A stretch of DNA of 64,000 nucleotides from Raillietiella orientalis (GCA_036172245.1 JAYWIR010000006.1:2046001-2110000), one strand, 5' to 3'. Shown: positions 10,310-62,100, counted from the first letter of the stretch. Program-made: numbers and translations. The notes: a model not told the origin generated them from the sequence alone.

Positions 10310-11060
10310 AAAGCAGCAACTGCCCACACATTATCCGCAGAACTACCACATGATTTTGCCACACAGAACCACGCACAGGACTGCCATGACAGAACTGCCC
10401 ATAAAAGTGGAACGTAGCGTCCCGTTTCTCCTGTTCTTGTTTGGGTCTGCTGTACGAGAAGGCAGAGCCTCGTATCAGACCGTCCTCAATGTCCAAGCGC
10501 CTGCAGTCGCGAGCGAGCGTGCGTCCCTTGCGCCCTGACGTCAGCAGGTTCCGAGGTCTTCCAGGACCTGCTGCCATCCTGGCAGCGGCGGCGGTGCTGA
10601 AGCAGCGGCTACCACTACTTGCTCCTTCTCTTGTCCCGCGGCTGGGTTGTGGTGACGTCGGGACACATGGAGCGACCTTTCCAGCAGACTCTGCCACCTC
10701 ACCCCCATTGCTGAACCGCGGGGGAAGAGTTATACGCTGGAAGCATCCCTTCAGAATTCTCTCCGAAGGAGTTACAAGGAGCGGTTCCTTAGCGGGTTCC
10801 TTCCGGAGAAGAAATCCCAAGAGCGGATCCTTTCTGGATTCCCTTCGGAGAAGACAAAATAGAGCAGTCCCCTCTGGAGAAAATGAGAAATAGCCTTCCC
10901 TTCGGGATTTCCTCCCGAGCGTAAGTGGAACAGACTCCTTCTTCTGGAGTCCTTCCTGAATGCATAGGGTGGTCCCTCCCGGCGTACTCTCTATCTCGAA
11001 GAGTGGGGCGCGTTCTCACGCACGTGCCCTCTATCGAGGGAATTAGGGGAGCCCACGGGA
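10310..11060 (-). repeat. Unknown family copy (5' module plus diverged ORF domain)
   Basis: 10690-11060 is a reverse-complement homologue of 12730-13060. Minus frame has GRPRNLL and EKRDATFHF....W.NHVVVLR, resembling ORF 59171. Confidence 0.6.
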
Positions 11061-12704
11061 GCTGTGGTCACGCTGCTTGCCTGCCTGCTTTCCAGGACGA
11101 GCGAATCGAGATCCTCGTGAAAAAGAGAGGTCGGGAAAGTTCCTCGGAATTCGTGAGCAATCCGGAAGTCCACTCTCAACTGATGTGGCAGCAACCCATG
11201 AACTCTGAGTTGGTCAAGGGCCTCCGAACCAAGGAGAAGAACAAGAAGTTGGTGCAGTTGGCGAGGAGATGCTCTATAAAAAAGTGGATTTTTATCTCCA
11301 AGAGCGTGGAGAGCCTATTCGGCAATTAGTGACGAAAACGTTGGCACAAAACCTCCTGAACCCGAGATCCACAACGCCGCCTGGGAAGAGGAGGAGGACA
11401 GTGCCACCCACCATGAATACAGGCAATCAGTGAACCAACCTGTTGCCTGTCAGGACCGGCAGCATCATCAGCAACCTCTGGTATTCCACGATTCCTAAGT
11501 AGAACCAAACCATGGGTCGGTATGCAGGAGCAAGGAGCTTTGCAAGATCAAGAAGCAGGAGACGCAGGAGACGCAGGGAGATCCCTATAGTTCCTCCGGA
11601 GGCCTCGGCGGAGCACCCCCATGGTAATCACAGATTCTTTGGTGGACTCGCTTCCCGGCATGGATGAATTTTTCCCACTCTTCCATGTCCCCCCTCGTCT
11701 GCGTCTCTCGGCTGGTGATTATCGCACTCTTGTTGGGGTGCGAATGGTGGGTTTCTCCTGCGGCGATGCTCTCGAAGATGTCCTCTGCGAAGCTGGTCGT
11801 GGCCTTCCTCGAGACGTGCACCACCTGCTTCAGGAATCACGTAGATGAAGATGAACGCAGCTACTTTACCCCTCCTCCACGCTTCCTTCGCATCTCCTTT
11901 GCTGATTCTTCGCCGAGCTTCGCCGTATTTCTTCGCAATCTTTCCACTGCCAGACTTAAAGACCACCACGCTCTTCTGCACTTGGTACGTCTTTCATTCG
12001 CTGGGTAGCACACACGGCACGGCGCCCAGTAGCACTCAGCATGCTCAGAAATGGAAAGCGGTCGAGGCCGTACCGCTCGTAATATTTCGTATTCTATAAG
12101 CACCTGTGGATGGATTTCCCGTAATCCGAACGGGGCCACTGACATTTACATCCGTGGACATGAGCTGGATCCATAATGGGAACTTCAAGCAAGCAGTTTC
12201 TCTCCGAAGACAAGAAACGGCTCCTTCGAAAGAAAACGCCAACTTCGGCGTTCGAAAGACGCGGAGCATTCGAGGCACTCTCGAATTTCCGGTCAAGAAG
12301 TAACTTTTTACGACAAGCTCGAGGGCCGGAATACTCTCGAAGCGCATCTTCGGCATGCAGGAAGCCCAAGTGCGCGTCCCCTTCGTCGAGGAGCTGCTCG
12401 CGCAAAGAAATCGACTCCATTTGCATCCGCATTCCCACGTCTCCTCTCCCTTCCTCCTCTCGCTGCACCCCACTTGCTCCGTCGCATACTCATGAGTTGG
12501 GCCGCAGTGCAAGGCTCTTGCGCTTCGAGGAGGGGTCCTCCAGTCCGCATCAATGCAAACCCTCAGGTTACGCGAACCGTCACCCTGCGAGCAAGGAAAG
12601 ATTCAGGATGCGAAGAGACCTTCTCGGACTCTTGTCGTAATGGACAACCTTGGTAAGCACTCGAAAGCCTCCAAGGGAAATGCGGAAGCTTTTGGGTTCG
12701 CTAA

Positions 12705-13275
12705 GTACTCGAAAACCCCGTTAGAGGGGCCCATGGAGCTCTTTAAACACTGTCCACACCACCCGAGGGTGCGTGTAACTCTTTAAGTCAGGGGGTGAAC
12801 CTGGATGAACCACCCCATGAATCCAGGAAGAATCCCGGAGGAAGGAGACTTCGTTCCTCTTACGCTTGGCTGCGAGCCCCGATGGGAAACTCTCCCTTAT
12901 TCTCTCTGGACGGATCCCCCGGAAGGAGCCACTCGTTTTTTCTCCGAAGAGAACCCGGAAAGGATCCGCTGTTGGCATTGCTTCTCCACAAGAGAACCCG
13001 CAAGAGAACCGCTCCTTGTTTCCTCCTCCGAAGAGAATCCCGAAGAGAAGCTTCCCAATTTCTCTGAAGGTCGCTCTCAGAAGGGTACGGTTCTCCTTTT
13101 ACACTCTGGAAGAGGGAACCTCTGATGAAGGTATCAACCAGTTCCATGGTATGGTTCCATTTTCACAAACCGGAGGGAAACCCTGGAGGGAAGCGACTCC
13201 TTGATTCCTGGGAGATTCCGGAGGATCAACTTCCAATCCCGGCCAGTCAAAACGGACATCCGGCTTTTACCAGCG
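12705..13275 (+). repeat. Unknown family, 5' module with ~40-bp internal repeats
   Basis: Collinear DNA similarity to 33300-33895, 58690-58990 and revcomp 50190-50790. Shared words include ccatgaatccaggaag, gtatcaaccagttccatggta, gactccttgattcctgg and tcaacttccaatcccgg. Confidence 0.85.
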
Positions 13276-14049
13276 CAGCAGCGCTCTTGTCTGCTCTTCT
13301 CTCGAGTCATGGTAGCCTCAGAATAAGCCAGGAATTCCTGTGCCTTCCTTGCGCTGGCCGCATCACGCGTACGTTCATGGCAACTTCTGCCTCCCCCCTG
13401 CTACTTGCATGTGGTGCTATCAGAGATCCCAGTCGTTTCCCTCTGTCAGTTCCGCCTCATAACGGTCCGCGTTGCCTTCCGCTTCCGCTCCACCCTGAGG
13501 AGTTGCAGACTGAGCGGAGGGCGCCGTTCGCCACGAGCTGCCGATGCTCGAATCTCAGGGCGAGCCGTGCGAGCGCCAGGAACCGTTCCGGGAACGCCGG
13601 CAACGCCGACCGATGAGCATCGCCAACCGGCCGAGTTGCGTCCGCGCCAAGGCCGCGGGACTTCCCGGCCTCGGAGTTCATGGAGGAGTCCCGGGAAGAG
13701 ACGACTCGCTCGCGCGATGTGTCGAGGGATGGGAAGCATCTCCAGCAAGCCGAAGCTCCGCGCAGGAGGAGCATTCCAGGTCCGAAGGAGGCCGAAACCC
13801 GCGGGCATTGAATCGCGACAACTGCGGCCGCGCGATTGCCCACTCCTGGATCCCGAATTCGGATTCTCAATTCCGGGACAAGGAGCCAGGATGCCCTTCC
13901 TCCATTTTCCTATTCCTTCCGGTTGTTTTGCTGGTGTCCTTCAGGAAGACTGCGCTCGTCCTCTCTGTCTTGCTGGGAACTCGAGGTCTCAATTTCGGAC
14001 AGGCTGCCTCACAGATGAGGGGGAGCAGGAACGCAGGACCAGCGTTCCC

Positions 14050-14768
14050 CCTCCGGCGTACACGATGGAAGCGTCTGCCGGATGTCTTCGATGCACACAG
14101 GAGACACAGGGCATCCCTCCCCCTAAAGTGGCAGGAGTCGGCGTTCCTGCTGTTGTATTGGGGCCTCCTGTACAACACCCGCCGACATCATTGGACCCGG
14201 GGAGAAGGTGAGCTCCCACTGCAGCAGATGCGGAGAAAGAGAATCCCTCCGGCACCTGCTCCTGGATTCTGTTGCCCTTCGCCCCCAATGAGAACGCTTT
14301 TACGCATCCCTACGGATATCCGAGGGAGGCCCCAGAGACGTTTTAAAGCACCTCTTCCTGCGCAACGCCCGCATCCTCAGCAGCACTTTGCAGCCTACGC
14401 GGGACCGTGACCGCATGGAGCAACTCCAGAGGAGGCCAGGACTACAGGAACGCCATCTATTCTGCCGTCCTCTTCATGAGAATAGCGTCAAGATGGTCCC
14501 ATCTGGGAGGCTTGAAACAGAAACTTGTCAGCATCCTGCAAAGGATGCAAAGGACGTCCTCCAGCATCCGGTGATTCCTTCCGGAACCCTCCCAATTTTT
14601 CGCACATATTTTTTGTTGTTTTTCCTTCCCCTCTGCCGCCGAGGCGAACCTCGCCGGCCTGCGCGCAGGTTCTCTGTAGGTCCTTTTACTATCTTTATAT
14701 GCACTGACCTATATGTTTATTTTTTGTTTATATGAATAAACGCCCGGTGCAACCGGGTGTCAACACAG
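14050..14768 (+). repeat. Unknown family copy (ORF domain plus 3' AATAAA/hairpin)
   Basis: LPLKWQESAFLLLYWGLLYN ... ALCSLRGTVTAWS..QDYRNAIYSAVLFMRIASRWSHLGGLKQ. DNA is collinear with 59170-59890. Confidence 0.85.
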
Positions 14769-15079
14769 GAGGGAGCGTGAGTTCCTGCTTCGACCTTTGT
14801 ATCTGGCGCCTCCAGGACGATCTCTTTCTCTGGAAAGGGAAGCACGCTTCTCGCTTCGCAAACGACTCCTCAGTCTTTCACGAAGGGGACATCTCTTCAA
14901 GATGTGCTGCAGGAGTATTACGACGGTTCCTCTCCCACCATCGCTAAAGTGTCCAAGCCCTCCCTCTCGCATGCAGCTCACGGGGTGAAAGAAGGGGACT
15001 TGTCTAGAAGAAGGAGAGGGATGTGAGGCTGAAGGACTGGTGACGTAGCGATAGAGTCGCTCACACCTCACCCAGTCCG

Positions 15080-18049: not shown

Positions 18050-18900
18050 CTCCGATTCCACCCTGCTGCCCCTAAACTTCCTCAACATCTCCGAAGCGCG
18101 GTCAGCCATAGAGGTCCGGCGTCCCGGAATGTTCTTTCTCGCAAGCAAAGGAGGCAGCTCAGCAAGGTCGTTCCTAAAGAGAGCTGTGAAGAGGGCAGCA
18201 CACTTCTTGCACAAGCAGGCTTGTCTGCATTCACGAGACCGGGGTAGAAGAAAAGAGGAAGCTGAAGAATTTAAACCCCAGATGGCACCACTTCTTTTTC
18301 CAGATTTCTCACAGCACTTTATCTCGCGAACGGCCTTGGCTGCAGTCCTCAGTATCGCAGTGCAGCAATTGTCATCAGGTATCGTCAGGGACTGAACTTT
18401 CCGATGAGATGAAAAAACAGAGAATGGAAAGTCAGGAACCAGAATCTCTCTTCACTTCAAGAGGCACGTTCCCAGCGTCCTCTACATGCAAGCACCGGTT
18501 AGCCAGCCGAAGTCCCTTACCATTTCCCCCGGTGGGTGCGACGGAGCGGCAGCGACGACAAGAAACGAATGCTCCTTCGACTTCGACAGACCTCCAAAGA
18601 CCAACACAGAAGGACAGCCAACCGGAAAACAAAGATGCGCGATTGCTTGCGCCCATTTCTCAGGCAATGCTGGTACTCAACGATGCGCAGCTGCTTCCCG
18701 CAGGACATTCCGATTTCCTCAAACGGCGACGTGCCCGGCAAGGCACCCATTGCCCTTTGGCGATTCCGGACCCCATGAGCCAAAGCGACGCGTGAAACCG
18801 GGAGATCAACGAGGGAAATCAGGAAACCCTCCGCAGCGCACGCTTCCTCGGCGACCCGAAGAAAAGGAGGGGTTCGTCCTTCCTCGCGAAGCGATACGCA
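18050..18900 (-). mobile_element. Internally deleted decayed LINE (PHD ORF1 remnant joined to RT domains 2a-4)
   Basis: GWLSFCVGL...AFVSCRRC (PHD-like, ~18545-18630); DSGS*..HS (~QSGFR..HS); AILRTAAKAVRDKV..IWKK (~A.FLD..KAFDKV); LFTALFRNDL (~LF.LF.NDL). Confidence 0.55.
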
Positions 18901-19320
18901 GTTCTCCAGGCAAAGTCAGCCGACCGACCTTGGGTGACTGAGGCGCCACTCGGTTCCTCAATTTCCGGCCAGTCGCCCCGCTCGTCGTTCCCGAGGAAGA
19001 CGGGAACGACGCTCCGGAGGAGTGCTTCGGGCTTTCGCTCCACTTTCTGGGACGCGCGTCCGCCAGGCACGAAAACGACCGCGCAACTGACTGCAAGCCG
19101 ACGAGGAGCGAAGGCACGGAATGGCGAGAACGCGCCCGGCCAAGCTGCCACTGAGCGCGACTCGGCCCCATTACGGACGCGGAAGAGAAGGGAAGGCACG
19201 CGGGTTTTACAGGACGGGGCACGTAGGGAAGCCGAGGAGTGAGCGAGCACGTCAGGGTTCGTGCGGGAACGCTGTCGCACGCGGAGCCAGAGCGGCCGCG
19301 GCCGTCCTCCTCGAAGGCGG
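18389..19320 (+). repeat. Left arm of a 932-bp inverted repeat
   Basis: Reverse complement of 36659-37590 (coordinates sum to 55979). Overlapping ORF translations are identical in several frames. Mismatch occurs immediately outside both ends. Confidence 0.97.
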
Positions 19321-21229: not shown

Positions 21230-23000
21230 GGGATGAAGCTGAGCAGAGGGGAGGAGGGCAGACAAGCCTGGCCGCTGCTGGTCACGACGCCTGTCGCTTC
21301 ACGGCCCTCCCAACCCGACCACTATGCAATCCCCAAGGCGATGCGCAGGACGCACTTTGCGTCTGCGAGAGCAGCGCAGTGGCGGTGACCTCCTGGAACT
21401 GCGATGCAGCTCTCCCGCTCTCCTTGCCCATCCCTGGAAAGAGCAGCGACTGTTGTTGCTTCCTGAGCCCACGTCGCAGAGACAGCAACGGAGCATCCAG
21501 AAGATGATGCGCTGCTCCGGTCTATCTCTATGCCCGACTCCCGGGAGTACTTCCTCCTTATCTCCTCTTTCCAATGAAAACCCATCCCACCCTCATCCAT
21601 ATTCACCGTTGCTGTCCGAGGCTGCGTCTTAGCAATGGGGTCGGGAAGTGCACAATCATCTCGTTCCTCCTGGCTGCCATGTTTTTTTTTGTCCTGACGC
21701 AGCAGTATACTCGGATTCTCCCTCTTCTTCCTGAAAATGGAAGCAACGCCGAATGACAGACGTTGCGAAGAGCTTCAGAAAAACTGGAAAAAAAGAAAGG
21801 GAGTCACGTCCTGTTGACCTCTCTCTGTATTTCAGGCGACACAGACGGAGGGGAGGGGAGGGGAGAGGAAGTGGTGCACGTGCCCAGATCTCTTGCAGGG
21901 CTTTTGCTCCGGAAGGCGCCTTCCTGATCCTCATCCCTTTTTGAGGCTCAAGGGTGAAGTCAGCCTCCGCAGCAACACTCGGGAACAGCAGATGACCTCT
22001 GATTGCAGTAGAGGCGGTTGGCAACAATTCCGCAGGTCCCTCAGACACCCTCTCTCGCGGTCCCCACGCTTTGAAGGCATTCCCGAAGGAACAATTCCGC
22101 TGGTACAGGCTGCTTGCGGCAATCCCTCACTGTACGGAAGCTGGAGGAAGTTTGAAAGTCTTCTTCCCTCCTTCCTCTGTTCATTCCCCTTTGTTAGTTT
22201 TGTCAGACATTGCCGCTCGAGACTGCCGATCCGAGTTGGCAGTGGGGAAGGCAAAGCGAGCTGGGAGGAGCTGGAATTCTCTCAGGTGGGGACGAGGAGC
22301 GCGCGGTGGTGACAGCATCCGACTCGAGCTGGCCCTGCACGCGGGAGGCACTTTGGCTGGCACGGCGCAGCAGGCAGGAGAGCTGGCGTCAATCCGCAGG
22401 CGGTGACGATGAACGGCGAGGTACGCGCGTGCGTCTCTTCTAGTGCGATTGCCCACGGCCACCTTCTCCCCCCTTCTTCCTGAATCCTAGAGCAGTTGAA
22501 CTCCAAGATGGGATTGTACTCCTGGATCCCGGCTGCTTGCCGGATATACCATAGAAAGAAGCTATATTCAGATCTCCTTTCTTCTTCCTTTCTTCCTCCC
22601 CTTTTTTCTTTCCTTCTCTCTTTTTCCTTTATCCCTTCTCTCTTCCTCTTGCCTTCCTCCTCCCTTTCTCTCCTTTCTGCTTTCCTCTTCGGAAGGAAAA
22701 GTCGGTAGGAGGCGAAAGGGCAGTGGAATAGAGCAGGGTGCACCCTGGAATGGGGGAAGGGAATCGATCATTCTTCCTGCACGTTACCTCCAATCAGGCG
22801 GTTCTTCCTTCACTTGTGGAAATCGAGTGGAATGCAACGTGGGAATTCATCTCCTCTATCCATCCGGCCCTCCAGTTTATACTTCCGGAAATCGGTAGGT
22901 AAGAACGACTCCTGCTTGCTCCTCTACGTCTTGCCTGTAGCCTGCGAAACGGTAGACGCGCATTCGAAACGCGGAAGTGGCGAGGGAGTGCCTTCGGAGG
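21230..23000 (-). repeat. Probable unknown-family upstream segment, diverged
   Basis: EE*SIPFPHSRVHPALF (~22720-22775) resembles EGGSIPFYHAFSRPPLF (~38900-38950, + strand). KQQQ..GK.S..EVTATAL resembles the 29150-29250 minus frame. ATTVAALS resembles AHTVAALS (~54310). Confidence 0.4.
22574..22690 (+). repeat. Polypyrimidine tract (~115 bp)
   Basis: Almost exclusively C/T. Confidence 0.9.
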
Positions 23001-23490: not shown

Positions 23491-24499
23491 AACGAAAGGA
23501 AGATACCAAGACGGTTCCTCTCTTTAGCTTCCGTTCTGCTCCAGTCCCCGGATCCAGCTTGTCTTCCCTTCACGATCTGCAAGTCTTTCCGTGATTTCTC
23601 ATCTGCATCCCCGCGAGATCCCACGAGGAACGGGATCCTCCTTTCGAACTGTCCTTTCGGCGGCTCCTTCTTGATGAACGACATCCTTTGGTGAACCAGA
23701 CGAAAAGCAGGACTGTTCTCCCCTTTCGTCCGCCAACTCCAGAGCACTCAAGGGAGCAAAGGTTGATGAAAGAAACATCTTTCGGGAGCTATGAACGAAG
23801 GAAGACGTTGGAAGCTGGAACCGCTTCCGTGAACTCATTTTCGCCGTCCAGAAGGAAAGGATGTGGGGAATCAAAATGGAGAGAAACTTCCAGAAAATCG
23901 AAACGAAAGTCGTGGAAGAAGCGGACTCTGCAAGCTGCTCGGCCTTCAAGATTGAAGAACCCTCCAAGGATGCAACACCCAGTGGCACAGCACGCGAGAG
24001 AAACAGCTCTTTGGTTTTTGCTCTACAGCTTCCTGCACCCGAGCTGAACTTACGAACAGCTCGTCGCTCGCGATGTCGGCTCGCTCATGCTGGACTGCCA
24101 TCGAGAACGTCCTTGTTGAGGGACTATGCCGTAGAACGGGATTTAGAAACTCCTGTCGCAAAAACTTGTGGCCTCTTCCCATATACCTCGACGGTTTTCT
24201 CCCGCAGGTGGCAGCACGCGGCAGCTCCCTCCTTGCGCTCGATTTGTTCCTCTCGGAGACTGGGAAAAGGGAGAGGGAGCTATCCTAGGTGTGGGGTGAC
24301 GAAACCATTCCTCTACTCACCGGTGGGCTTCCTCTGCTCACGGAAACACCCTGCTGTAGCGCTTCAGCAGCAGGATCATGGTGTCCTGCTGCTCTCAAAG
24401 CACGATGATGATGGTGGAGAGGCTCAGAACTGACTCAGCCACCAGCCAACACGAAGCAATCCACATGGAGTCTTCAAGCTGAAGAGTCTGGCAATATGG

Positions 24500-24960
24500 T
24501 CCCGTCTCGAAGGAGCAGAAAGAAAAGTGGTCAGAGTGATCTCACGCCGGCTACAGCCAGGGTTGAGTCCCAGAAAACTCATCCTTTGCATACCTATTTT
24601 TATGCATCTGTTCGTTGAGTTCTCCCCGTCTTGCCGGTGTTCGTGCGCAGCTGACCAAATCGGAGGTGTCTCCTGGATTCCTGGAGAAATTATGAGCTCG
24701 GCTCCCACTTTGCTTTATGAGAAACGCCTGGATTGGCCGAGTGGGAACTCTTATGTCTTGCTTCCGGCAGAGACGATCACCTTGAGGAGGCAGGGCTTCC
24801 GAGACGCTCCCAGACGCCAAGCACTGGGGGCAAATCACTTCCGAGTGTCACTACGCCAATTACTTCAGGAGGTCGAACTTTACTTCAGGAGCTCCAGGAT
24901 CCTGGAGACATTGCAAATCTGGTGAGTCAGAGGTGGCTCAGTCGTGGGACACGGGAACGT
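24500..24960 (+). repeat. Unknown family copy, diverged
   Basis: RKLILCIPIFMHLF (~QELILMLLHWGLLY) and RLDWPSGNSYVLL (~TLGTPGGNPSNLL). Confidence 0.5.
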
Positions 24961-27069
24961 ACGTCTGGAAAGAAGGAAATTCCTCACTCGATGACTCTTC
25001 CTGGATACTCCATGCGGAGGAACTTTGCACGACTGGTCTCATTTCGAGAGTTGGAGGAAAAATAGGCGGCGGAGTCATATGAGGGAACGTGCGCCATGCT
25101 AAGTGCTGCGGTTCGGGGGTTCCACCTGGGAGGAGCTGGAGGGAATTGTTGATCCCGTGCGGCATCCAGAATGCCACCACAGCGATCGATGGGGGAGGTC
25201 CTGAGGAGCAGAGCCAAGCTGAATATTTAAATCGCAAGAGACGCAGCAGCGAGGTGACGAACGCGGCGGAGCGTTCCTCTTCATTGATGCTGTGCGAAAC
25301 AAACGACCAAGATTACAGGATAAGCATCACTGCATCTGCACATGAGGGCAAAAAATGCCAGTCTCGGAAAACTTCATCCATCTGCCGTGACATTCTTTGT
25401 GGAAGAAGAACCAAAGTGAGAGAGGCAGGGAGACCTGGCTGTTGATGGGGGGGAAACGACTAGCAGATTCTTAAGAGACAGAAGCCCCGTGGAAAGAGTG
25501 AATCTTTGAAATGATTTTCGGTTCACTTTTTTTTTTTGTACCTTTCAAAGATTACGAATAGATGATGGAACCGTAAAAGTTAAATAATGTTTCTCCACGG
25601 ATTCGGAAGCCGAGTTAAAGACTAACGAGCAGGATGGCAGCTCTTCTAGAAAAGAAATATCTTCCTGGAGATCGCCGAATCTCGGCGTTTCGGGCTGAAC
25701 CCTCCCTCGGCACTTTGAAAAATAGTCCTCAAGGAGTAACAGGGGAGGGAGGTGTGCCTTGCAGCGCTTGAGAACTCTGATGTGAACTCCCTGGAATTTG
25801 GCTGCAGCCGTACCCGGTGTCTGGACTCGTCTCCGCAGACTCACGCCAAGAGTTTCGGTTTTGAGCAGATCCTCGATCCCGGAGTACACTTTTCTCGTGG
25901 GACGCCGGATTTCGTGACCACCATCCTCCGTCATCCACCCACCTTCCGCGCAGCCTCTTTCTTGCTCTTCCTTCCTCACGAGTGGCGTGGCGGGTGAACT
26001 GACTTGGTCAGTTTTTCGCACGAAGTCAGGTGGTCCGGGAGACGCCGCCTGCGAACCGGGGAAGGACTCGTGAGCCTGCCTTGCACGCCTGAGGGTGAGA
26101 GTGCGCCACCCTACTACCCTCGCTTGCGAATCTGCGGGGCTGCCATCCAGGCCTCTTCCCAACACGGAACTCGTGCCCTCCTTGCCTGACGCAAGAGGCG
26201 GAGGGCGGATCCCCGAAGCACACGGACAAGCTCCACCCCCTCACCTGTCCGATCGCTAATTTCACCGTGTCATCTTCCGGTTTCATCTTCTCCTCACGTC
26301 CCGATGCACCACCCCACCCGCGGGCCATCAACCTTCCATGAGCGGACGGCGCAACTGCTTCCCTGTCAAAGGACGCTGCCATAAAACCCCTTGTCTCCTT
26401 ACCCATAGCGCGTTTTCCCAGCTGCCGTTGACAGCTAGTTTGCACTTAATTCCAGACCCATTAAAAAACCCTATTAAGCTCGCGCGTGCCCTGCATCTTC
26501 CTCAGCTGGCAACACTGCTGGCAGGCACCTAGCTAGCAGTTTTTTGTGGGATTCTCATACGGATGCCTGCTGGCTCCCTCTAACCCCCCCGTCATCCTCC
26601 CCCTTTCCCTCGTCCTCTCTCTCTTTTTCCCTCAGGAAAACGAAACTCTCCGACACACCCTGGTTCCGCCTCGGGGTAAACCCGGGAAACTTCCAGGGAA
26701 GAAGCGGGCAGGTCTTGCTTCCCCGCTTGCTTCAGCGGCTGGCAGCTGGACCGGGAGCGCTGGTCGGAATGGCGATCGGAGACCCGCAGCCTTCCTGAGA
26801 TGAGGACGCGGCGAACGGCGTCTGACTGTCCCTTGGTGCCTGAAACTCCTTCCTTTGAGGAACTCCACGCGTAGCCTTGGATGCTCGTGCAAAACTCATC
26901 CTTTGAACGGAGGAAAGAGAGGAGGAGGAGGAAGAAAAGAAGAGGAGAGATGAAGAAGGAGGAATGAAGATGGTGGAGTCCCTAGCGCTCGTTATTTCTG
27001 CATTTTCCTTCATTCCCCTTCTCCCTTTCCTTTTTTTCCCTACTTTTCTGAGCTCAGGAAACACCCTTC

Positions 27070-30250: not shown

Positions 30251-30954
30251 CCGGGTATTCTTGCTGCTTCGCAGAAAAAAGTGAAATATGAAAGGATTCC
30301 TACAGTTCTTCCTCCGCTGCCGGATTTGTTTCCTCATGGAATCAGTGGGATTGTCCGAGCCGGGCCTCTCAAGTATCGCAGGATGACGGATCCGCAACTC
30401 CCACGGCATCGGTGCTTTCTTAGACGTCTTAGAGCTCCTCGATCTCGAAGATGCAAGGCCCGCGGCACCACATCAGGCGCAAAAGCGCAAACGAGGAACT
30501 TTCTGGGTTGTTTTCTACTCTCACTTTTATGGGCAGCGCTTCGAAGCACGCTGGCGGGCATTCCATGGGAGTATTGATTACCGCAGGCACTGGTGATGCA
30601 GGCTGTACCTCGTGGCTTCTAATTTTCCAGCAGTTCGGCTCTCCGGGAGGCTGGCTCCTCAAGTAGCTCGGCGTTTGGACTCTTCAAAACACAGCACGTG
30701 GCCAAACACATAAATGCACTGCAACACACACACGCACACGCACACGCACGCAGCAACAAATCGATAGCTTTGCTGTCTCAGTTTCGTGCCTCCTACTATC
30801 AGCGCGGTAAGGGTTCAAGGGGAAACGCAGGCAGGTGACCACGCATCTGCCTCACTGCGTCGGGACAGTGCTGCTTCCCGACTAGGAAGGCAAGAACCCA
30901 GCTTCCAGTCCAGAGGCAGGGAGACTGAGCTTCAGAAGATCCTCTGTACCGGAA

Positions 30955-31150
30955 GAAGTAAGGGGTTTCAACCCGATCACTCCGGGACGTCTGTTTCGAC
31001 GAAAACAAAACACACCACAAGTTCGGGGGGGAAAGGCACTCCCTTCGAAAAAACAAGGAAAGCCAAAAAGGAAAAAAAAAAAAGAAGTTCATCAGGGATA
31101 ACCACCTGCACGCAGGCAGCCTGCCGAAAAGTAGGGAGAAGGAGGGGGTG
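30955..31150 (-). repeat. Unknown family 3' end fragment
   Basis: Revcomp matches 40130-40330: gcctgcgtgc.ggtgg.tatccctgatgaactt ... cgtcccg..gtga.cgg.tt.aaacccct. Confidence 0.75.
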
Positions 31151-34880: not shown

Positions 34881-34899
34881 ACCGCCAACGCGGGCCCCT

Positions 34900-49739: not shown

Positions 49740-50790
49740 TCGTCTCAAGCACGGCGGAGCCGCTCCAGAATTCTTCGAGTTGCGCAACTCGCGGGAGCGG
49801 ACGCGAGGGAACAAGGTGCAGTCGGTGCGGCGCGGGAAGCAGGGACCCCCGACAAGGCTGCCTTGGGGCGCAGCCCTTGTCGGAGTCCTCTGTCCCTCAG
49901 GGGTTTGGTCTGGTCTCCTCCGGAAGGCAGGAGCGGCGCTCGCACCCTTCCGGGAGTGGCCCAGCCTTGAGCGTCGGGACAAGCCTCCGTCTGGAGAGTC
50001 AGCGTCGCCCCGTTTCCCCGGGCCCTTGTTTTTGGCTCTCGCTGCAGGAGGCAAGACGAACGGGCGGCCTACTGAGCAAAGCGGTGCCAGGGGGCACCGC
50101 AGGGGAGGCGAAGGTTTCTTCTCGGAGATTTCGTGGTCCCACGAATGGGGACTCCTGGTGAAATCCATCAGCGTTTTCTCTCCTCGCGGCTCTCCGGCAC
50201 TTCCCGGATGTGCGAAGCGGGGACTTCCGAAGGAGCCGTCGAATTCCAGATCGGCCTGTAGGCCTCGGGTGCACCGGTGGAATCCAGAAACCGCCGGATG
50301 CCCCATTTGGCAGCCGGGATGGGAAGGTGGTCCTCCGAGGTCCTTCCAGGAATCAAGAGTCGGCTTCCTTCTGGGATTCCTCTCTGGTTGTGCAAATGGA
50401 GCCGTCCCGCCCCTCCTCCAAGTGAGAACCCTCTATCTTGCACCATGAAGCTGGTGGGTTGATGCCTCTTCAGGGTGTGAAGTGCGCTGCTTCCTTCTGG
50501 GATCACCCTTCAGAGGAGCGCTTCCCTTCCGGGTTCCCTCCGGAAAGGAAACGATGAGCAGCTCCCTCCGGGAGGTCTCTCCGGAAGAAATAAGGAAGAG
50601 GTTCTCTCAAAGGATAACCAGGGTGGAAGATTCCCTTCGAAGCTCCCTCCCAAGCGCGCGAGAGGAGCGGACTCCTTCTTCCGGAGTCCTTCCTGGATTC
50701 ATGGGGCGGTCCCCCTCCTGGGTACTCCCTATCTTGAAGAGTTGACACGCACTCTCGGGTGGCGTGGATAGCCTCAAATAACTCTGTTAG
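49740..50790 (-). repeat. Unknown family copy (5' module plus ORF domain)
   Basis: 50190-50790 is a revcomp homologue of 12725-13275, then EISEKKPSPP/PWHRFAQ*AARSSCLLQR. Confidence 0.8.
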
Positions 50791-51949
50791 CCCCCTCTGC
50801 CCCCCTTCCCCCCTCCCAAGTAGGCGAGCGTTTCTTCAGCACTTGGAGGACCCCCAAAAAACTCGAATTCCAGATCTGGGATGCTCCTGCGTCACAGAGA
50901 GGTGTGCCACGAACAGGGGCGCACAAAACTCGTCTACCCCTTTTTCCTCCCGGAAAGCGGGACAAGCCCTAGATCCAGTGCGCTGCTGTAACGTCCTCGC
51001 TCGAGCAGGTTCTCCAAGCCGTACGTCTGCACATACGTGCCAACCCCTCGAAGCCGGCTCGCCTCCGGCCTGGCCTCGCGGCGAAGAGTGGGTGGTGGAA
51101 TGCACATGCGAGAAACCACAACCTCGTGGCTCTTCGGCATGACCCCTGCCGGCTTTTGGTTGCTCCTCCTCCAGGCGGCTGCAGCGGGAACCCAACTCTG
51201 GGATGGATTTCCTCCGCTGCGTCGCTTCCTGCTCACCTCGGAGCCCTCAACGCGGATCTTCTGGGCGAGGAGGGAAGGAACTTCCGAAAGGAACCATGAT
51301 GCTTGGAGCTTCCCCTTCGAATGCCTGCGGCGGATGAAGACGCTCCGCGGAAGCGGGGCGCGCATTCCCGCCGCCGACCTTCCTCCTCCTGCGGATCGAC
51401 CGTCTGTACGGTGCTGCTGTCACACGTGGGCGTCCAGCCGATCGAAGATTCCGCCGCAGACCTTCGCTAGCGCACTCCCTCCTTGCGGGAACCGGTGGAA
51501 GCAAAGGAGGGGCATCCCGGTGGGCGACGGCTGCACCGATCCTCGAGCCTCCTCCCAAGATTCGAGAGGATTGCGCTCGCGGCGGAGGCGTCAGCGCGTC
51601 CGGGGAGGACGCCCTCTGCTCTTCCTAAATGCCACATCCCGAAGGAGAAAGCTGGTGCTCCGTGACCCTCTACCGCGTTTTAGGTTCGCCACGCTGACCT
51701 TCACTACGATCGGGATTCTCCGATTCTGGAGGTCTACGTTTCGCCCAGGAATCGTTTCTTTCTGGGAACGTGTCTTCCTCTGATCCATCAACTTCAGACA
51801 TCTTTCGCGAGCTTCTCCTCGTCTCCCTCAGGCGGCTCAGCACGCGGCAGCGCTTCTCTTGCACTGGGCGTCTTCCATGCACCAAACTCCCGAATTGCCG
51901 AGAGAGCGGAACGCGGTAACCCCAAGGGGGGGGGGGGGGAATCGGGATA

Positions 51950-52350
51950 CTTTCAGCAGCTGCTATCGGACAGCGGAGCAGTACGCAGCTGGCAATCCCT
52001 TGTGGAGTTGCTGCTCATATCCACCACACCTGGACGACACCTTTGCCGCGGGCCTCTTCTCGCAAGACAGACTGCCTCAACTGCCTCAAGCGACCTCAAC
52101 GCTCTATTGCCGCCACAGGGGAGGCGGTGGCGGCTGAACGCCCCGACGGAGTCGCTCGAGCAGCCTCGGCGAGTCCCATCCACGTAACCACTTCCACGCG
52201 GAGGACAGCAACTAAGCAGTGTCACTCGGACGGAAGAGTAAATACCATCGCCCGAGTTACACACAGAATGCAGAAGATGAGGTGCTGTTAATTTGACGCT
52301 TTCTGCTTCTAACTCCCTCGTTCCTTCATTTCTATTTTCCTATTTATTGA
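51950..52350 (+). repeat. Unknown family copy, diverged
   Basis: PLW.....HLDDT....LFSQDRL.......LYCRHR resembles HLEGT....IFTQDQL.....RCCIR of the 53.8-kb copy. Followed by a T-rich trailer. Confidence 0.55.
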
Positions 52351-52484
52351 TCGCTTTCTTCGAGTCGTGCCAGCAGCCTGCTTCTGCGAGAAGGCTTCTG
52401 CCGCTGCCACCTACCGAAATCCGGTAGGAACCAGTCACCTAGGAACGCGTCATTACTGTTACTACTGAGCAATCCAGAACATCT

Positions 52485-53200
52485 TTCTCATCCCGGATGT
52501 ACATAACCGTTTATTTAAAATAAGTACATAAATAAACAACTACAAAACAGAGGATGATTGACTTGCCGGCACCAAACGAAAGGGTCCGAGACTGGGGATT
52601 TCACTAGGTAAGAGGAGAAGAGTGGATGAAAAGATGGTTAATAAAGAGACAAGTAGGTGGTGGCACGAGCCGGCTCCACGCTGATTGACGAGGATTGGCA
52701 AAAATCCAAGTCGGGTTTCAGCTCTACTCCATCCCTCGACCCAAATGAGGCGCCCTTTCTCTCTGCTTCTCATTTTGGGCCAGTTGTAACCACGTCGCAT
52801 GAGACCGATCGCCGCGGCTACCGCGAACGGCTGCTCTGAATGCTTCGCAGCTACGCCTTTCTTGCATCTTGGGTGCTGTTCTGTTGCTTCCTTCGGGTGG
52901 CAGAAGGTGGCCAGTCAGGAGTCAGCTCACGGTCCCGAATTCCTCGGATCACGTCATGGAGGGGCACTGCTGGGGAGTTAAGAGCGCCCCTGAGATGCGG
53001 GTCCAGAAGTCCGACGCACACTGGTTCGTCCCAGAAGCGCTTGCGCAAGGGTTGGCCACGACTGCGCGGAGGATACTTTCCTTGGGCATCATCGTCTCCG
53101 CGAGTGCGTGGCGGAGTTTCTCGCTGTGGTGCATGGGGGCTCCGTGCGCCGGCGGCAGGGTGGGCGGCTCCAGTAGAGAAGCACGAGGTCCCGAGGTCTT
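52485..53200 (-). repeat. Unknown family copy, diverged
   Basis: DFWTRISGALLTPQ (~DMWWRFASALRQPQ). 3' aataaacggttatgtacatccggga. Confidence 0.6.
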
Positions 53201-53470
53201 CTTGGCGAATCCTGACAATTCCCCCCCTCCTCCCTTCCCTGTGATCCCTGATCAGAGTCCTTGGGTGTAACGAGAAGAGGAGGATGGAGAACGAGGGTGT
53301 GGAGCTAGAAATTTCTCAATCGCGCAGGTCGCTTCACACGCTAAAAGACAACCCATTTCTTCCTCTTTTTACCTGAGTGAAGAGAGCGCAAGGCTCCCAT
53401 ACTCCTTAGGAAGCGAGGTCGCCCATGGTCCTTGCCATCGGAGAGTTTCCCTAAATAGCAAGGGCGTGCA

Positions 53471-54900
53471 TGGTTTGCAACCGGTCACGTCGGGATGTTT
53501 ATTTAAAAATAAATTGCAAGTCAAAAAAGAGAAGCTCAATAGGGATGGCCACCTGCCCCAGACCGGCTTCTAAAGAAGTCATGAGCGGGGTGAGAGGACA
53601 GTAAACAAATATAAAAAGACGGAAGGGTAGGGACAAGAGTCTTTGGTTTCAGCCACTCCTTTCTTCCTAGAGCTTGCGCTGAATGCTGGCGATCTCTCTG
53701 GAGACTTCTTGCAGGTGAGGCGCCACCTCGTTGGCATCCTCGTCCAGGCGGCTGCTATTCGGGTGACTCCATCCTGGAGCTGATTATCCCTATGACGCGG
53801 ATGCAGCATCTCGCCGGGATCACGGAGCCTGCCGTCAGCTGGTCTTGCGTAAAGATGCGCTACAGCAAGTCCGAAGCGGTGCCCTCCAGGTGGCGGACCG
53901 GCAGAGCGAGTCTCCGTCACATGTCCTCCAGGGTGCTGTAGTCCAATACAGCACGGTTCGGAGGACAGTTCAGGGAGGCGACTTCCCCGAAAACCCGGCG
54001 CCTGCTTTGGTTGCAGTGGAATCCCCAGTACAGAGACAGCAGGATATCCCGTGGTTTCCACCGCTGCAGAGGTGACACCGTCGTGTCTAAGCACAGGGGA
54101 GGGACCGTGAATTCTTCGGGGGCACATCAAGTAGGTCACTCCACTGGAGGAGTCCCTTTGTCAGGGAACAGTAGCACTGTGGCGTCCATCAACTCGCTCG
54201 TACTTACAGCCATCGAGGACTGGCAAGCGGCAGGACAGCTCCCGCCCCGCTGGCTGGCTACTGTCATCGTTTGCCCTAGGACGCTTCCTGCCCTCAGGGC
54301 AGACAGTGCTGCGACAGTGTGTGCGACGGCTATCCGGGGACCACTGCATCCAGTACTTCAGGAGATCTCCTAGCGGCTTGCATGGGAGTTTCTGAAGCGG
54401 ACGGAGTTTCTCCGGAAGCACATCCAGAGTGGCAACCCAAGACTCCAATTCTTCCTGCCGCCGTGCATGGAAGCGATGTGGGAGAGGGTGCACTTCTGGT
54501 GGGAAAGCGCCTCGGGAACCCCGAGGCGCTTTCATCCACCCTGAGTGACTGGGCAAAAAGCGTCGTCTCTCCTTCCGGTCAGACCGCTACCATCTTTTCG
54601 GAGCTTCAGAAGGTACGGACTGTCCTCGCATCGCTGCACCATCGCGGATCGGATTTTTCGTATCCTCTGAGCGCTCGTAACACCTCTCTCGATGAGAACA
54701 CAGCGCCATCCTTACTCTCTTTGCAGACGACCTCCGGGCAGTCCGAGTCTACCTCTGTCAACGCCGTCGCCGCTTCTATCCCACAGCGGACGCGCGCTGT
54801 GGTGGTGACGGAGAGGAAATATCGGCCCTATGGACCACCCGTTTCTGAGGGACGCCGCTCGGTCCTCAAGAGATCAATTCTTCGCTTTCGAGGCGGTTGG
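53471..54900 (-). repeat. Unknown family, long copy (second subfamily)
   Basis: LDTTVSPLQRWKPRDILLSLYWG...DM*RRLALPVRHLEGTASDLL*RIFTQDQL..GSVIPARCCIR. 3' motif AATAAACATCCCGACGTGACCGGTTGCAAACC (53503-53472). Confidence 0.8.
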
Positions 54901-56429: not shown

Positions 56430-56455
56430 TTGTGTGTGTATGTGTGTGTGTGTGT
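56430..56455 (+). repeat. (TG)n microsatellite
   Basis: Direct reading. Other simple repeats at ~17953 (GT), ~28349 (CT), ~30725 (CACACG), ~36618 (TTG), ~56036 (CA). Confidence 0.9.
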
Positions 56456-57249
56456 CTGTTTCTCCGGAAAGGCGACCTGGTCTCTTGATGACACATTGAT
56501 TTTTTAACCCCTCGAAACTCTCTTTCTGCAGCCAGTTCTGCGCCAGCCGTTTGACGAGATTCGGAGGTCGTCTCGGAATCTCCCACAGATCATTCGGTGT
56601 GCGTGCGTTCCTTTGGCTTGTTTTCCTTTGTGTACCTCGGAAAAAGAGGCCGCGATGGTTCGCGAAACTGTCGCGTCTCCATCCGACCTTCAAGTGGGGG
56701 CTGACCTGACCTGTGTTTCCTGAGGTCGGTGGCTCTTGCAACGCCTTTGTCACCTCGCCTCTCTGCCGCCTAAAAGAAATTCCCGGATGTACGAAGAAAC
56801 GCCCAGGAAGATTTCAGGAAAAGAGACGTCACCGACTTTGACCCTCGCTAGTGCTCACGACCTCGCTCCTCAAACCTGAGCCGTCGATGGCGCGGTGGGA
56901 AGCCGGACTCCTCTCCCTGATCGCGCCGAAAAAGTGCGCGGGATCTAGAGATGGCGTCCCGCCTACCATGTCGGGCAGACTGCTCGCTGCTCTTCCGCCC
57001 TGCCTTCCGGAACAGCACTGGTTAGCCGGCGTTATTTCACAAGTGACTGAGAGCCACGTCAGAGTGCTATAACGGGACACGGGATACAGATGACTATCCA
57101 GGGGCTTTGCCGTGCTATTCGGAATTCGCGGTGGCTGAAGGAACAAGGAGTCTCCTCATCTGACCTCCTTAAAGGGGAAATGTTCCCATCAGTTTCTCGT
57201 TGATTTGCAAGAAAAAAAAAAAAATTTCCTGACGTTTCCTGGTAACGAA

Positions 57250-58560: not shown

Positions 58561-58689
58561 ACACGGTTCGGCAGCTTCATCTCAGATCTCCAGAAAGATT
58601 TCCTCGTCTCCGGACCTGCTTCCCCAGAGGCTTCTTTCCCTCGTGATGCCACCTGATGGTATCTCACTGCCGATCTGGGTTCAGCTCGA

Positions 58690-59890
58690 CAATGGTCTTC
58701 GAAGGGAACTCCGAAGGGAACCTCTCCTTTTTACCCCTCTGAAGAGAACCCCGAAAGGAACCCCGAACCCTTCCCAATTTCTCTGAAGGGAGCTCCCCGA
58801 AGGGAGCAGAGCGCTTATTACGCTCTAGAGAGGTAAACCCTCCGATGGAAGTATCAGCCAGCCCCATGGTACGGCTTCACTTTCACAACTGGAGGAAACC
58901 CCGTGGCTCCTTGATTCCTGGAAGAATCCCGGAGCGTCAACTTCCAATCCCGGAAGTTCACGCGACGGAGGTATCCGCTTTCCGGCTTCCACCACTGCCA
59001 CACTCTGTGTCACCAGTGCTCCAGTGGAAATCTCCAGAAGGTGAAGAGGACTGGGCGAGTGGATGGCGGGCCAGCTCACGAACACTGCGACCCCGAGAGC
59101 TCGATCTCGTATACTTTTGCGCTTGGGTGTGTTACTGGGTATTCTGGAGGGAGACCTGCAGTGACACCTGGTGCTCATAAACACCCACACCCTCCCCTTG
59201 GAGTGGCAGGAGTTAATATTGATGCTGCTGCACTGGGGCCTTCTGTACAACGCTCCCCGGCATCTGTGGACACGGGGTGTGGGTGGACCCAAACTTAGCA
59301 AGGTGCTGGAAGAGGAAATCCCTCCCGCACCTCCTAGTGTTGCCCTCCGACCCCTTTGGGGACGCTTCGCCGCGACCCTTGGAACCCCTGGCGGAAACCC
59401 CAGTAACCTCTTGAAGCGCTTCTTCCTGCGCGACACCCTCACGCCGGTCGCATCCCCAGCAGCACTTTGCTGCCCACGCGACGGGACCGTGGCTGCATGG
59501 AGCAGCGCCAGATGCCAGGACGACAGGGACTCCATCTATTTTGCTGTTCACTTCATGAGGACAGCATCAAGGTGGTCCCATTTGGGAATCTTGAAACAGG
59601 AATTTTCCGCCATCCTTACAAGGATTCAGAGGACATCCTCCAGCACACAGTGATCCCTTCCCGAACCCCCCCATTTTTTTGACTGTATGTTTTATGTTTT
59701 ATTTTTTTTTTCTTTTTGTTTGTCTTCCCTCCCCCTGTGCTGCCGAGGCGAACCCCGCTGGACTGCGTGCCGCTTCGCGGCAGGTTCCTTCTCGTAGTTA
59801 TAAGCAACGTGGCAGGATCAAACGTTCTGCCACAGTCCTGCCTGTGTTTATTTCATTTATAAGGTCCCCGGGGTGACCGGGTGTCAACCA
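58690..59890 (+). repeat. Unknown family copy, best preserved (5' module, ORF, 3' hairpin)
   Basis: Collinear with 12940-13270 plus 14100-14768, and with 33950-34850. Confidence 0.9.
59171..59653 (+). CDS. 160-aa open reading frame of the unknown family (hypothetical; true start unknown, probably the C-terminal part of a longer ancestral ORF)
   Basis: The only copy where the family-conserved frame is uninterrupted. The same residues recur in copies whose DNA similarity is weak. GTG start, so present-day expression is doubtful. Confidence 0.4.
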   Translation: MLINTHTLPLEWQELILMLLHWGLLYNAPRHLWTRGVGGPKLSKVLEEEIPPAPPSVALRPLWGRFAATLGTPGGNPSNLLKRFFLRDTLTPVASPAALCCPRDGTVAAWSSARCQDDRDSIYFAVHFMRTASRWSHLGILKQEFSAILTRIQRTSSSTQ

Positions 59891-60294
59891 CTGCCGCAGC
59901 CGAAGACAACCGAGGTCCACCAGCTCCATCCTGCGCGGGAACTTCGAAAACAACGACGCACCCATCAGTTTCTCGGAGTCGATCCTCCACGTGCGGATTC
60001 GAACCCGCAGCGCTTGGCACCATGCGTGGAGACCGCAGCCACACACAAGATTCACATCGAAAATTCGAGGTCACACAAAGATATCGAAGGAAGGGATTTT
60101 GCACAGCTCGAGCCGCTTTGTCCATTCTGCAGCTTTGTGGCTGTTTCAAACTCGGTTGCGCGGAGCCGTTTGTTTAAGGCAAACAAACGCGCACTGCATG
60201 CCCTGAGGGCACGAGGCGGGGAATGCCAACAACACGCAGCTCGGCTCTCCCCGACCAAGAGGGAAGACGCGCTCAGCACAGAGGGGTTGAGGGA

Positions 60295-60745
60295 ATAAAA
60301 ATAAATAAATCAATGAATATGCGGTATGGGGAAACACCGGGCGCACAACATTCCCTGTTTCCGGGAAATGGAAGAGGAGGGAAGGCAAGGAATGGTGTCA
60401 GTCCCGCGTCTTTCTCGCAGCCTTCCCGCGGTTTGGGAGGCATCCTCGGTGATACCGGGACGGAGGTGAGGCCACCCTCCGCGTCACGTATGGGATGAAG
60501 CGACTGGCCGTCCTCCGGAACCGCCTCGGCCCCACCGCGCGGCGATTCGCGGCCACCGCCCAGACTCAACGAGACGTCGTTGCCAGCGGTGTGGGCGGCC
60601 GACAGCCCCCGCGACATGAAGAACCGCCGCAGAAAGCTGCCGTCGAGGGGAGTCCTCTGGGTGCAGGAGGGGTGCTGTCAGTCGTTGCCACCCGCCGCGG
60701 AGGAACTCGTAGCTTCTTGGTTGTGGTTGAAGGACCGTCTTTGAC
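60295..60745 (-). repeat. Unknown family copy, diverged
   Basis: WQRLTAPLLHPED / SFLRRFFMSRGL (~WWRFASALRQPQD..NLLQRFFTGCGL). Confidence 0.65.
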
Positions 60746-60759
60746 GAGTGTTTCTTGTC

Positions 60760-61200
60760 TCCTTATCTAGCCGAAGACTTTGTAGTTGGGTGAATTCACC
60801 TCTGCAGTTTGAACTCCCAACCTTTCATGAGGCACAGACGTTCTTCGCTGTTTTTTGCACGCCAAGTCCTCTCCCTAGATTTTCCGTGTTGCGCGGATGG
60901 AAATGTTGGTGCTCTCCTTGCGGATCGACTAGATTGGTAGGTATCTCTCCGTGGTTTGAAGGATGCATGTCGGAAGACGCCGGCATCATCGGGGAGACCA
61001 ACGCCACGATGCATGGCAGCAGGATGAACATTTACAGATGAAGATTTGCAAATGGTCACCGTAGGCGTTAATGCATTCGGTCCAACCGTGAAGAATAAGT
61101 TGGTATCAAGTGCTCGGCCACCAGTGTGCTCAGGTGCACCTGATAAGAACAACCTTCTGATCTCAGATAACAAGACCATTTGAATAAATAAATAAATAAA
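60760..61200 (+). mobile_element. 5'-truncated CR1-like LINE 3' end with a (TAAA)n tail
   Basis: EFTSAV*TP (~EYAS.VWSP), EAQTFF, RMEMLVLSL (~RL..L.L.SL), TMHGSRMNIYR (~TRGH.MKL), then aataaataaataaataaa at 61183-61200. Confidence 0.65.
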
Positions 61201-62100
61201 GGCAGGTACAGTGAGAGGTCGACATGAGTCTGTCCGTACCCAAAGAGACTTGAGACGGAACTAGGGGACGGAGGAGACAGTTAATAAATAGGGAATGGGG
61301 TGGAGCGCCCTCACGCCAATGAACGCGATTCCCGAAGGCCTGTGCCGGACAGGGAAGGGAGTGCGTTCGCCGTTTTCGGGTCGGTCGTCCTACAGTCGCC
61401 TGAAGGTTCCCTTGTACTCTGCATCCCGGGCTGGGACACTTCGCTGCCCTCCTTCCGCATGCAGGCGATGGTTCCTTGAGATGGCTGCCACGCTCTTCCT
61501 GCGGTTTGACGAACATTTCTCCTCTCATGTAGCAGGGGATCGCCGAAGTGGAGGAGGCAGCTGGCAAGACTGGAGAAGTGGACAGCTCTCTCAGAAGGCC
61601 CTTTGGGGCAGCATCGGCGGACTGAGGTGCTTCTGGGATTTGCTTCCGTCCCTGACCCAGCCCTTCACGTTCAGAAAGCACGTGCGGAAGAGTCTCCACT
61701 GTGCCACAGAGGACACTTTCCTTACTCTCCCCGTTGAGGCGTGGTGGTGTTCCTTATTACCGGGGAAACCAGAAAGGCCAGGGAAGAGCCACGCTGTGCA
61801 TTGGATTGCACGGGAGCTCCTGCTGCTTCCTCAGCACAGGGCACATTCAATTCTCGGATGATAGATTCATTCGTGCTGCTGCCCGGCTCGTCGTCCTCGT
61901 CGTCAGAGGAATTGCATATCGCTAAGAGAACGGTAGCTGCGGAAGACGTCGAGCTCCGAATGAGACGCTGCCTCGTGTGCTGAATCGCGGCTTGGCGCTG
62001 TTTGCCCTCCAGCACGTTCGGCGACCCGAACGCACTGTTCCACCGGTTGAAGACGGCGACAAAAGGGAGCTAGGAAGTGGTCTCTTGCGGTGAGCTCATC
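61200..62100 (-). repeat. Unknown family copy, diverged
   Basis: VIRNTTTP, QWRLF, APKGLLRELSTSPVLPAASSTSAIPCYMR. Trailer ccacccc..ccctatttatt..tgtctcctcc matches 40092-40135. Confidence 0.65.

Follow-up and report, generated by a model that had tools for sequence, protein, structure and literature searches.

Probable remains of an unclassified interspersed repeat behind a recurring reading frame in a 64-kb window of Raillietiella orientalis DNA

In a 64-kb stretch of DNA from Raillietiella orientalis (GCA_036172245.1, JAYWIR010000006.1:2046001-2110000; hereafter the window, with positions counted from its first letter), one reading frame recurs on both strands. Does this frame mark a family of protein-coding genes or elements, or does it only accompany a decayed repeat? 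We found that the frame lies in a unit of two modules, an ORF (open reading frame)-bearing module B of ~0.6-0.75 kb and an upstream module A of ~0.4-0.6 kb that is built partly of 41-43-bp units. The copies share a 3' end, their frames are broken and their substitution pattern is near neutral. We favour, as somewhat probable, the reading that they belong to one unclassified interspersed repeat of mobile type, whose copies are dead and diverged long ago, without claiming an undescribed family. On this reading the recurring frame itself mostly reflects DNA homology, in DNA whose base composition makes long open frames common.

Profile searches with reversed-sequence controls gave a final count of eight copies of module B, one 3' fragment of B and six pieces of module A. 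The loci of module B are:

14103-14779, plus strand: B copy c14, 70% identical to c34 and c59 by blastn; leave-one-out nhmmer E 1.3e-56
34341-34903, plus strand: B copy c34, 85% identical to c59 over 575 bp; nhmmer E 3e-115 as a seed
39592-40328, plus strand: B copy c39, second subfamily, 66.5% identical to c53 over 436 bp; tblastn match to c59 at E 2e-5; leave-one-out E 2.7e-25
51809-52496, plus strand: B copy c52, strongly diverged; Smith-Waterman z 5.8 against c34, consistent for four seeds; leave-one-out E 6.8e-11 over 51931-52388
53464-54108, minus strand: B copy c53, second subfamily; found by self-blastn and translated comparison; leave-one-out nhmmer E 4.7e-26
59178-59899, plus strand: B copy c59, the best preserved; found by self-blastn and the 8-seed nhmmer profile
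59165-59653, plus strand: 162-codon stop-to-stop frame within c59, the sole uninterrupted one of the family and the query suggested by the earlier, sequence-only reading of the window
60145-60878, minus strand: B copy c60, strongly diverged; Smith-Waterman z 6.2 against c39, consistent for four seeds; collinear in tblastx; leave-one-out E 2.7e-6 over 60272-60701
63001-63687, plus strand: B copy c63, strongly diverged; 5-seed nhmmer E 2.5e-5; leave-one-out E 3.4e-11 over 63177-63543
30950-31140, minus strand: 3'-terminal fragment of B, c39 type, ~200 bp including the terminal block (motif at 30965-30986); 70% identical to 40123-40329; nhmmer E 6e-10
23936-24751, plus strand: candidate B copy c24, unconfirmed

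In a blastn comparison of the window with itself, three ORF-bearing segments stood out clearly, at 14.1(+), 34.3(+) and 59.2(+) kb (70-85% DNA identity), together with a diverged pair at 39.8(+)/53.9(-) kb (66.5% identity). When 1384 translated frame fragments were compared with the window, 341 non-self matches were obtained at E<=0.01, versus 16 on the reversed window. Those below E 1e-4 formed 15 region pairs, all of them B loci, module A, a perfect inverted duplication or one 3' fragment; outside the known families 17 weak matches remained, about the number seen in the control. A protein jackhmmer search with decoys converged on the same five loci (14.1, 34.3, 59.2, 39.8 and 53.9 kb). A permissive Smith-Waterman test against Markov shuffles, in which the positive control reached z 3.8-5.9, added four candidates at 52.0(+), 60.6(-), 63.3(+) and 24.6(+) kb. 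The registers of c52, c60 and c63 were mutually consistent against three to four different seed copies. Each of these three was also recovered by nhmmer after the tested copy had been removed from the DNA profile (E 6.8e-11 at 52.0(+), 2.7e-6 at 60.6(-) and 3.4e-11 at 63.2(+) kb), with the best reversed-sequence control of the leave-one-out runs at E 0.015-1.3. The final profile of eight seeds returned the eight copies and the fragment at 30950-31140(-), with nothing further below E 0.1 and a best reversed control of 0.63. No additional copies were found with a 3-seed DNA profile or a 51-residue core protein profile. Some apparent matches at 60.3 and 61.2 kb are, at least in part, (TTTA)n-like simple sequence.

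The sequence-only reading had counted about 20 copies, well beyond the eight and one fragment that the profiles support. Its quoted peptides were found at 59348, 39771 and 60676/60618 (the last on the minus strand, its two parts in different frames), and seven of its 16 listed loci (14.1, 34.4, 39.8, 52.0, 53.9, 59.2 and 60.6 kb) were recovered. The remaining nine were not. At 15.1, 23.1, 27.4, 47.6, 53.0 and 61.6 kb the Smith-Waterman z was at most 2.1, and these loci were absent both from the jackhmmer search with decoys and from the 8-seed profile at E<0.1. The locus at 24.6(+) kb (z 3.8-4.7) aligned in two incompatible registers and gave no match when left out of the profile. At 10.4(-) and 50.0(-) kb module B was undetectable; both loci lie just downstream of A pieces (11059-10616 and 50793-50247). 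Conversely, two members, at 63.0-63.7(+) and 30.95-31.14(-) kb, had not been listed. The family is the main repeat of the window, as its coordinates add up to at most ~8.7 kb of A and B, but at ~14% of the window it does not dominate it. The description of an old, deeply diversified interspersed element on both strands held up.

Module A was found in six places:

12719-13321, plus strand: A, partner of c14; nhmmer E 4e-156 as a seed; 67% identical by blastn to 33289-33875; direct repeats spaced 43 and 41 bp
33325-33928, plus strand: A, full copy upstream of c34; self-blastn and nhmmer profile
33946-34321, plus strand: A, second partial copy, abutting c34; blastn and nhmmer profile
58595-59034, plus strand: A, partial copy ~100 bp upstream of c59; self-blastn and nhmmer profile
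10616-11059, minus strand: A with no B detectable downstream by Smith-Waterman or the 8-seed profile; self-blastn, translated comparison and nhmmer
50247-50793, minus strand: A with no B detectable downstream by the same two tests; self-blastn, translated comparison and nhmmer

For this module the reversed-sequence control is unclean, since its units are rich in purines and align to themselves when reversed. Units of the degenerate type CTCCGAAGAGAACCCGGAA, 41-43 bp long, lie at 12942-13044 and 33539-34202, and three A copies begin, by eye, at a common TTTTGG... boundary. A stands upstream of B at three places: it abuts B at 34.3 kb, is separated from it by ~100 bp at 59.1 kb and by ~0.73 kb at 13.3-14.05 kb. 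The makeup of the copies thus ranges from the 0.2-kb 3' fragment through B alone and partial A plus B to full A plus B. The ~0.73 kb between A and c14 (13322-14050) is unique, without counterpart in the other copies, and holds two overlapping ORFs of 294 and 298 amino acids (aa) with no Pfam match.

The features of module B follow in this order: the frame, a TGA stop conserved in c14, c34 and c59, a pyrimidine/T-rich tract, TATA-like runs 40-90 nt upstream of an AATAAA, and a terminal block. The tract just after the stop is the most conserved 60-bp bin across subfamilies (0.516, versus 0.37-0.47 inside the ORF). The consensus of the terminal block, CCCG..GTGAYCGG.T...AAC, had four exact pattern matches in the window and none in 100 shuffles; with the variant in c14, the block is common to five members (c14, c39, c53, c59 and the fragment at 30.95-31.14(-) kb):

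59867-59888, plus strand: 3'-terminal block, exact pattern
40289-40312, plus strand: 3'-terminal block, exact pattern
53473-53494, minus strand: 3'-terminal block, exact pattern
30965-30986, minus strand: 3'-terminal block, exact pattern
14736-14765, plus strand: 3'-terminal block of c14, variant, reading ATAAAC then CCCG..GTGCAACCGG..AACA; homology to the other copies ends here

Homology between copies stops ~25 nt past the AATAAA, and from one copy to another the flanks show no relationship. The sequences beyond the block are likewise not A-rich, with neither a poly(A) nor a simple-repeat tail. No target-site duplication was seen by eye at 12651/12693 and 14765, the limits of the sole copy with both ends; such duplications may have decayed, because the copies are only ~70% identical. 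By eye, three copies start with TGG, three to four end in ..AAC(C)A, and TGGTTTTGC.. at the 5' start forms an imperfect inverted match of ~9-10 nt with ..GCAAACCA at the 3' end. A small hairpin of 5 pairs in the terminal block, with invariant pairs and no covariation, is uninformative either way. We also observed that two pairs of copies lie tail to tail, in each case with a plus-strand copy scoring best against the 34/59-kb type facing a minus-strand copy of the 39/53-kb type (c52/c53, ~1 kb apart; c59/c60, ~0.25 kb apart). This arrangement may be a coincidence or an old duplicated pair.

Does the recurring frame code? The 162-codon frame is open in one of the eight B copies, that at 59.2 kb, and by eye stops or frame changes interrupt it in the rest. 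An in-frame TGA takes the place of the first conserved Trp in c14, whose frame shifts twice with respect to that of c59 (by eye). At least two frame changes are required for c34 to follow the c59 frame, and this copy lacks the terminal AATAAA block. In c39 an ORF of 106 aa spans the core and then meets a stop. A TGA occupies the second conserved Trp in c52; there are at least three in-frame stops in c53, a frame change within the core of c60, and three in-frame stops in c63, which lies outside the interval covered by the sequence-only reading. No start codon is conserved among the B copies. The two conserved Trp positions are hit by in-frame TGA codons in four of the decayed copies (14289-14291, 53917-53919(-), ~63190 and ~52130; by eye and approximate), and a conserved Gln by TAG in c53 (by eye). 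A genetic code with TGA as Trp and TAG as Gln was considered and not adopted: these changes are also the commonest one-step nonsense mutations and so fit ordinary decay, the intact copy and its relative P0002 (see below) need no reassignment, and no other observation in the window favours such a code.

By the Nei-Gojobori method, dN/dS in the claimed frame was 0.93 (c59-c34), 0.59 (c59-c14) and 0.72 (c34-c14). The claimed frame is not singled out by these values, because the two other frames gave similar ones (0.62-1.05), which largely removes the clear coding constraint that had been proposed. For the pair c39/c53, identity by codon position was 0.55/0.76/0.76, with position 1 the most diverged. 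The proposal that similarity persists better in protein than in DNA was not supported: the DNA profile detected the diverged copies at E 1e-6 to 1e-11, whereas the protein jackhmmer search with decoys halted at five loci. This is the opposite of what is expected for a constrained protein.

The composition of the window bears on the open frames. Over the whole window TpA is strongly depleted (observed/expected 0.45), CpG is not (0.89), and there is an enrichment of AA/TT and GA/TC. DNA so poor in TpA commonly contains long open frames. Stop-to-stop ORFs of at least 100, 162 and 220 aa numbered 280, 77 and 26, versus 244, 60 and 19.5 under a local second-order Markov null, an excess that is largely compositional; the frame at 59165-59653 is one of the 77. 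Taken together, the evidence for coding is mostly negative and weak. We put at roughly even the chances that the frame is a relic of a short ancestral ORF, and likewise the chances that B ever coded for a protein; those of a functioning gene family in this window are low.

We searched for relatives of the encoded sequence. A full HMMER scan of 1.84 billion representatives returned one true relative, P0002, an 87-aa ORF forming a singleton cluster on a 2870-bp JGI metagenome contig (E 1.2e-7). Three further matches (P0003, P0004 and P0005) were repetitive or low-complexity proteins and were set aside as chance. P0002 was again the only relative in a further profile search. A word-indexed protein search with the 59.2-kb ORF, confined to proteins of near length (a band that excludes the 87-aa P0002), found no relative, and scans of metagenome, prokaryote-genome and viral contigs with this ORF or with P0002 found none either. 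A locus in IMG/VR (L001) was attributed to chance, as it rested on a single seeding peptide and ran antisense within an ORF of 1050 aa. The best PDB match had an E of 0.33. AlphaFold2, given a 10-row alignment, reached a mean predicted local distance difference test score (pLDDT) of 52 and a predicted template modelling score of 0.37, with only residues ~120-160 helical at pLDDT 71-76. The recognition score of the ORF by a protein language model was within the range typical of shuffled sequences, and ESM Atlas recognition (2059, best score 0.81) was uninformative.

How, then, might the copies have spread? Their discrete shared boundaries and unrelated flanks argue for insertion as units rather than segmental duplication. 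The fixed 3' end ~25 nt past the AATAAA, combined with variable 5' extents, fits copy-and-paste via RNA. Within the favoured reading the most likely mechanism, though short of probable, is that the family spread by this route. It would be a non-autonomous retroposon, or else its copies would be the 3' ends left, after 5' truncation, of a longer element of the type lacking long terminal repeats (non-LTR). The element would have been copied through an RNA intermediate by a reverse transcriptase encoded elsewhere, and the copies would then have decayed neutrally. Non-LTR retroposons and the 3' ends of long interspersed nuclear elements (LINEs) resemble the family in their common 3' end, variable 5' shortening, presence on both strands, lack of a polymerase of their own and deep decay, and the conserved 3'-terminal block could serve as a recognition site. 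The SIDERs of trypanosomatids are an example of such degenerate retroposons.

Several observations weigh against this account. As to the RNA route, unlike typical non-LTR retroposons the family has no poly(A), microsatellite or other simple-repeat tail past its 3' end, no target-site duplication seen (by eye) at its sole two-ended copy, and no known partner LINE. Two A pieces occur without the 3' module B and are not producible by 5' truncation, and three copies have a discrete 5' end in common. No reverse transcriptase was found by Pfam among the 681 stop-to-stop ORFs of at least 60 aa in the window; a non-autonomous member would need none. As to the view that the frame carries no meaning, P0002 matches it at 52% identity over 85 aa; P0002 shares the frame, and its end position is that of c14, c34 and c59. 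This evidence is weakened because P0002 was ascertained through being open. Cross-subfamily identity peaks weakly at codon position 2 (0.412/0.468/0.401, p ~0.04-0.05), a pattern absent from the control region after the stop. Four of the seven windows with the strongest 3-base periodicity lie in B copies, and the conserved positions are W, C and F. Finally, c34 and c59 are 85% identical in module B but only 66% in the A pieces next to it; for c14 both modules are equally diverged.

The same features may be read as those of solo LTRs, left by an LTR retrotransposon. A and B together (1.4-2.1 kb) would then correspond to U3-R-U5, with the TATA-like runs and the AATAAA as promoter and polyadenylation signals and the frame either incidental or an accessory ORF borne by the LTR. 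The size is compatible with this reading, as are the singly dispersed copies on both strands, the TATA-like runs 40-90 nt before the AATAAA, and, by eye, the TGG starts (three copies) and ..AAC(C)A ends (three to four), which recall TG..CA, and the ~9 nt over which the 5' start imperfectly matches the 3' end in inverted orientation. However, a 4-6-bp target-site duplication is missing at the one complete copy, and there is no direct pair of copies around an internal gag-pol region. No gag, reverse transcriptase, integrase or protease domain was found in the 681 ORFs, though no systematic search was made for a primer-binding site or polypurine tract. The ~25 nt past the AATAAA would be a very short U5, and the common B-only truncated copies and the 0.2-kb 3' fragment would require extra deletions. 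We consider a solo-LTR origin unlikely.

To the same degree unlikely is that module B represents a real, undescribed protein of ~140-160 aa from a new mobile-element family of a eukaryotic lineage that has been little sampled. The first intact members would then be the 59.2-kb copy and P0002, the other copies would be pseudogenes, and the protein would have a helical C-terminus with conserved Trp, Cys-Cys and Arg-Phe-Phe positions.

A host origin is less likely than solo LTRs. In this scenario an intronless multigene family with many pseudogenes would have grown through local duplications and inversions, with a live gene for a protein of ~140-160 aa at 59.2 kb, A as its upstream region and the AATAAA as its polyadenylation signal. 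The open frame at 59165-59653, the in-frame identity of P0002 with its identical end, the TGA conserved in c14, c34 and c59, the gene-like layout (the ORF, then ~0.2 kb, then AATAAA), the weak codon periodicity and the clustering of the copies within 54 kb agree with it. It is countered by the single intact copy of eight, the dN/dS of 0.93 between c59 and c34, the lack of a conserved start codon, and a relative that is a singleton among 1.84 billion representatives. The mean pLDDT of 52 and the language-model score in the range of shuffled sequences speak against it as well, and insertion explains the discrete boundaries and unrelated flanks better than segmental duplication does.

Also ranking below solo LTRs, and quite improbable, is a non-autonomous cut-and-paste DNA transposon with short terminal inverted repeats, whether larger or like a miniature inverted-repeat transposable element. 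It would account for the discrete unit ends, the lack of a polymerase in the window and the imperfect inverted match of ~9-10 nt (TGGTTTTGC.. against ..GCAAACCA, by eye). Yet this match is short and seen only between different copies, the complete copy has no flanking duplication, and a shared 3' end with variable 5' loss is atypical of the class. A Helitron (5' TC, 3' CTRR, hairpin 10-12 nt before the end) was rejected, as the ends read ..AAC(C)A and the 5-pair hairpin shows no covariation. Least of all do we expect a captured and amplified endogenous viral gene, for which an ORF without cellular relatives is the only support: no ORF carried a viral hallmark domain in Pfam (capsid, Rep, polymerase or integrase), the single IMG/VR match was the antisense one seeded by one peptide, and a second viral scan with P0002 was empty.

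Descriptively, the favoured reading of a dead, unclassified repeat places the family with the lineage-specific "unknown" interspersed repeats that de novo repeat finders report in protist genomes. Like these, it is a multi-copy, decayed unit of 0.5-2 kb with spurious or relic ORFs and no protein-family match; unlike a family, this category is a descriptive bin and silent on mechanism.

The window contains no N, and its GC content is 45% over the first 8 kb and 50-62% beyond. Scans for tRNAs and against Rfam gave no match. In Pfam, none of the 280 ORFs of at least 100 aa reached the cutoff (three sub-cutoff matches, E 8e-4 to 8e-3), and the 401 ORFs of 60-99 aa had no match at E 0.001 or better. 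Across these 681 ORFs there was no credible match to a reverse transcriptase, endonuclease, integrase, protease, gag, DDE, Rep or capsid domain, in agreement with the sequence-only reading, which had seen no reverse transcriptase, DDE, Rep or capsid motif in the element. By appearance, the DNA looks like gene-poor eukaryotic sequence, GC-rich and poor in TpA.

Several other features were recorded. An inverted repeat of 932 nt, 100% identical, has its arms at 18389-19320 and 36659-37590, 17.3 kb apart, with an extra 95-nt piece (95% identical) at 36240-36334/37108-37202 and no protein domain in the interval that separates the arms. Either a very recent duplication in inverted orientation or an artefact of assembly could explain it. 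The plus-strand ORF at 62334-62648 has the strongest 3-base periodicity of the window (5.4x background) and the most protein-like composition, and contains a short in-frame tandem repeat; a search for its relatives found none, and ESM Atlas gave no usable match. Microsatellite-like polypyrimidine/polypurine tracts and a (TG)14 run occur at 22574-22687, 26909-26970, 44776-44822 and 56431-56459.

In conclusion, the window is unusual in having no recognisable protein domain across 64 kb, and its recurring frame is fairly ordinary for a eukaryote-like genome rich in repeats. The finding would take on greater weight only if intact, selected copies of the frame existed genome-wide, which would amount to a new element-borne protein family. 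If the favoured reading is right, the family is a matter of routine repeat annotation: the many open frames of the region would not be genes, and a two-module repeat with a fixed 3' end would be available for masking.

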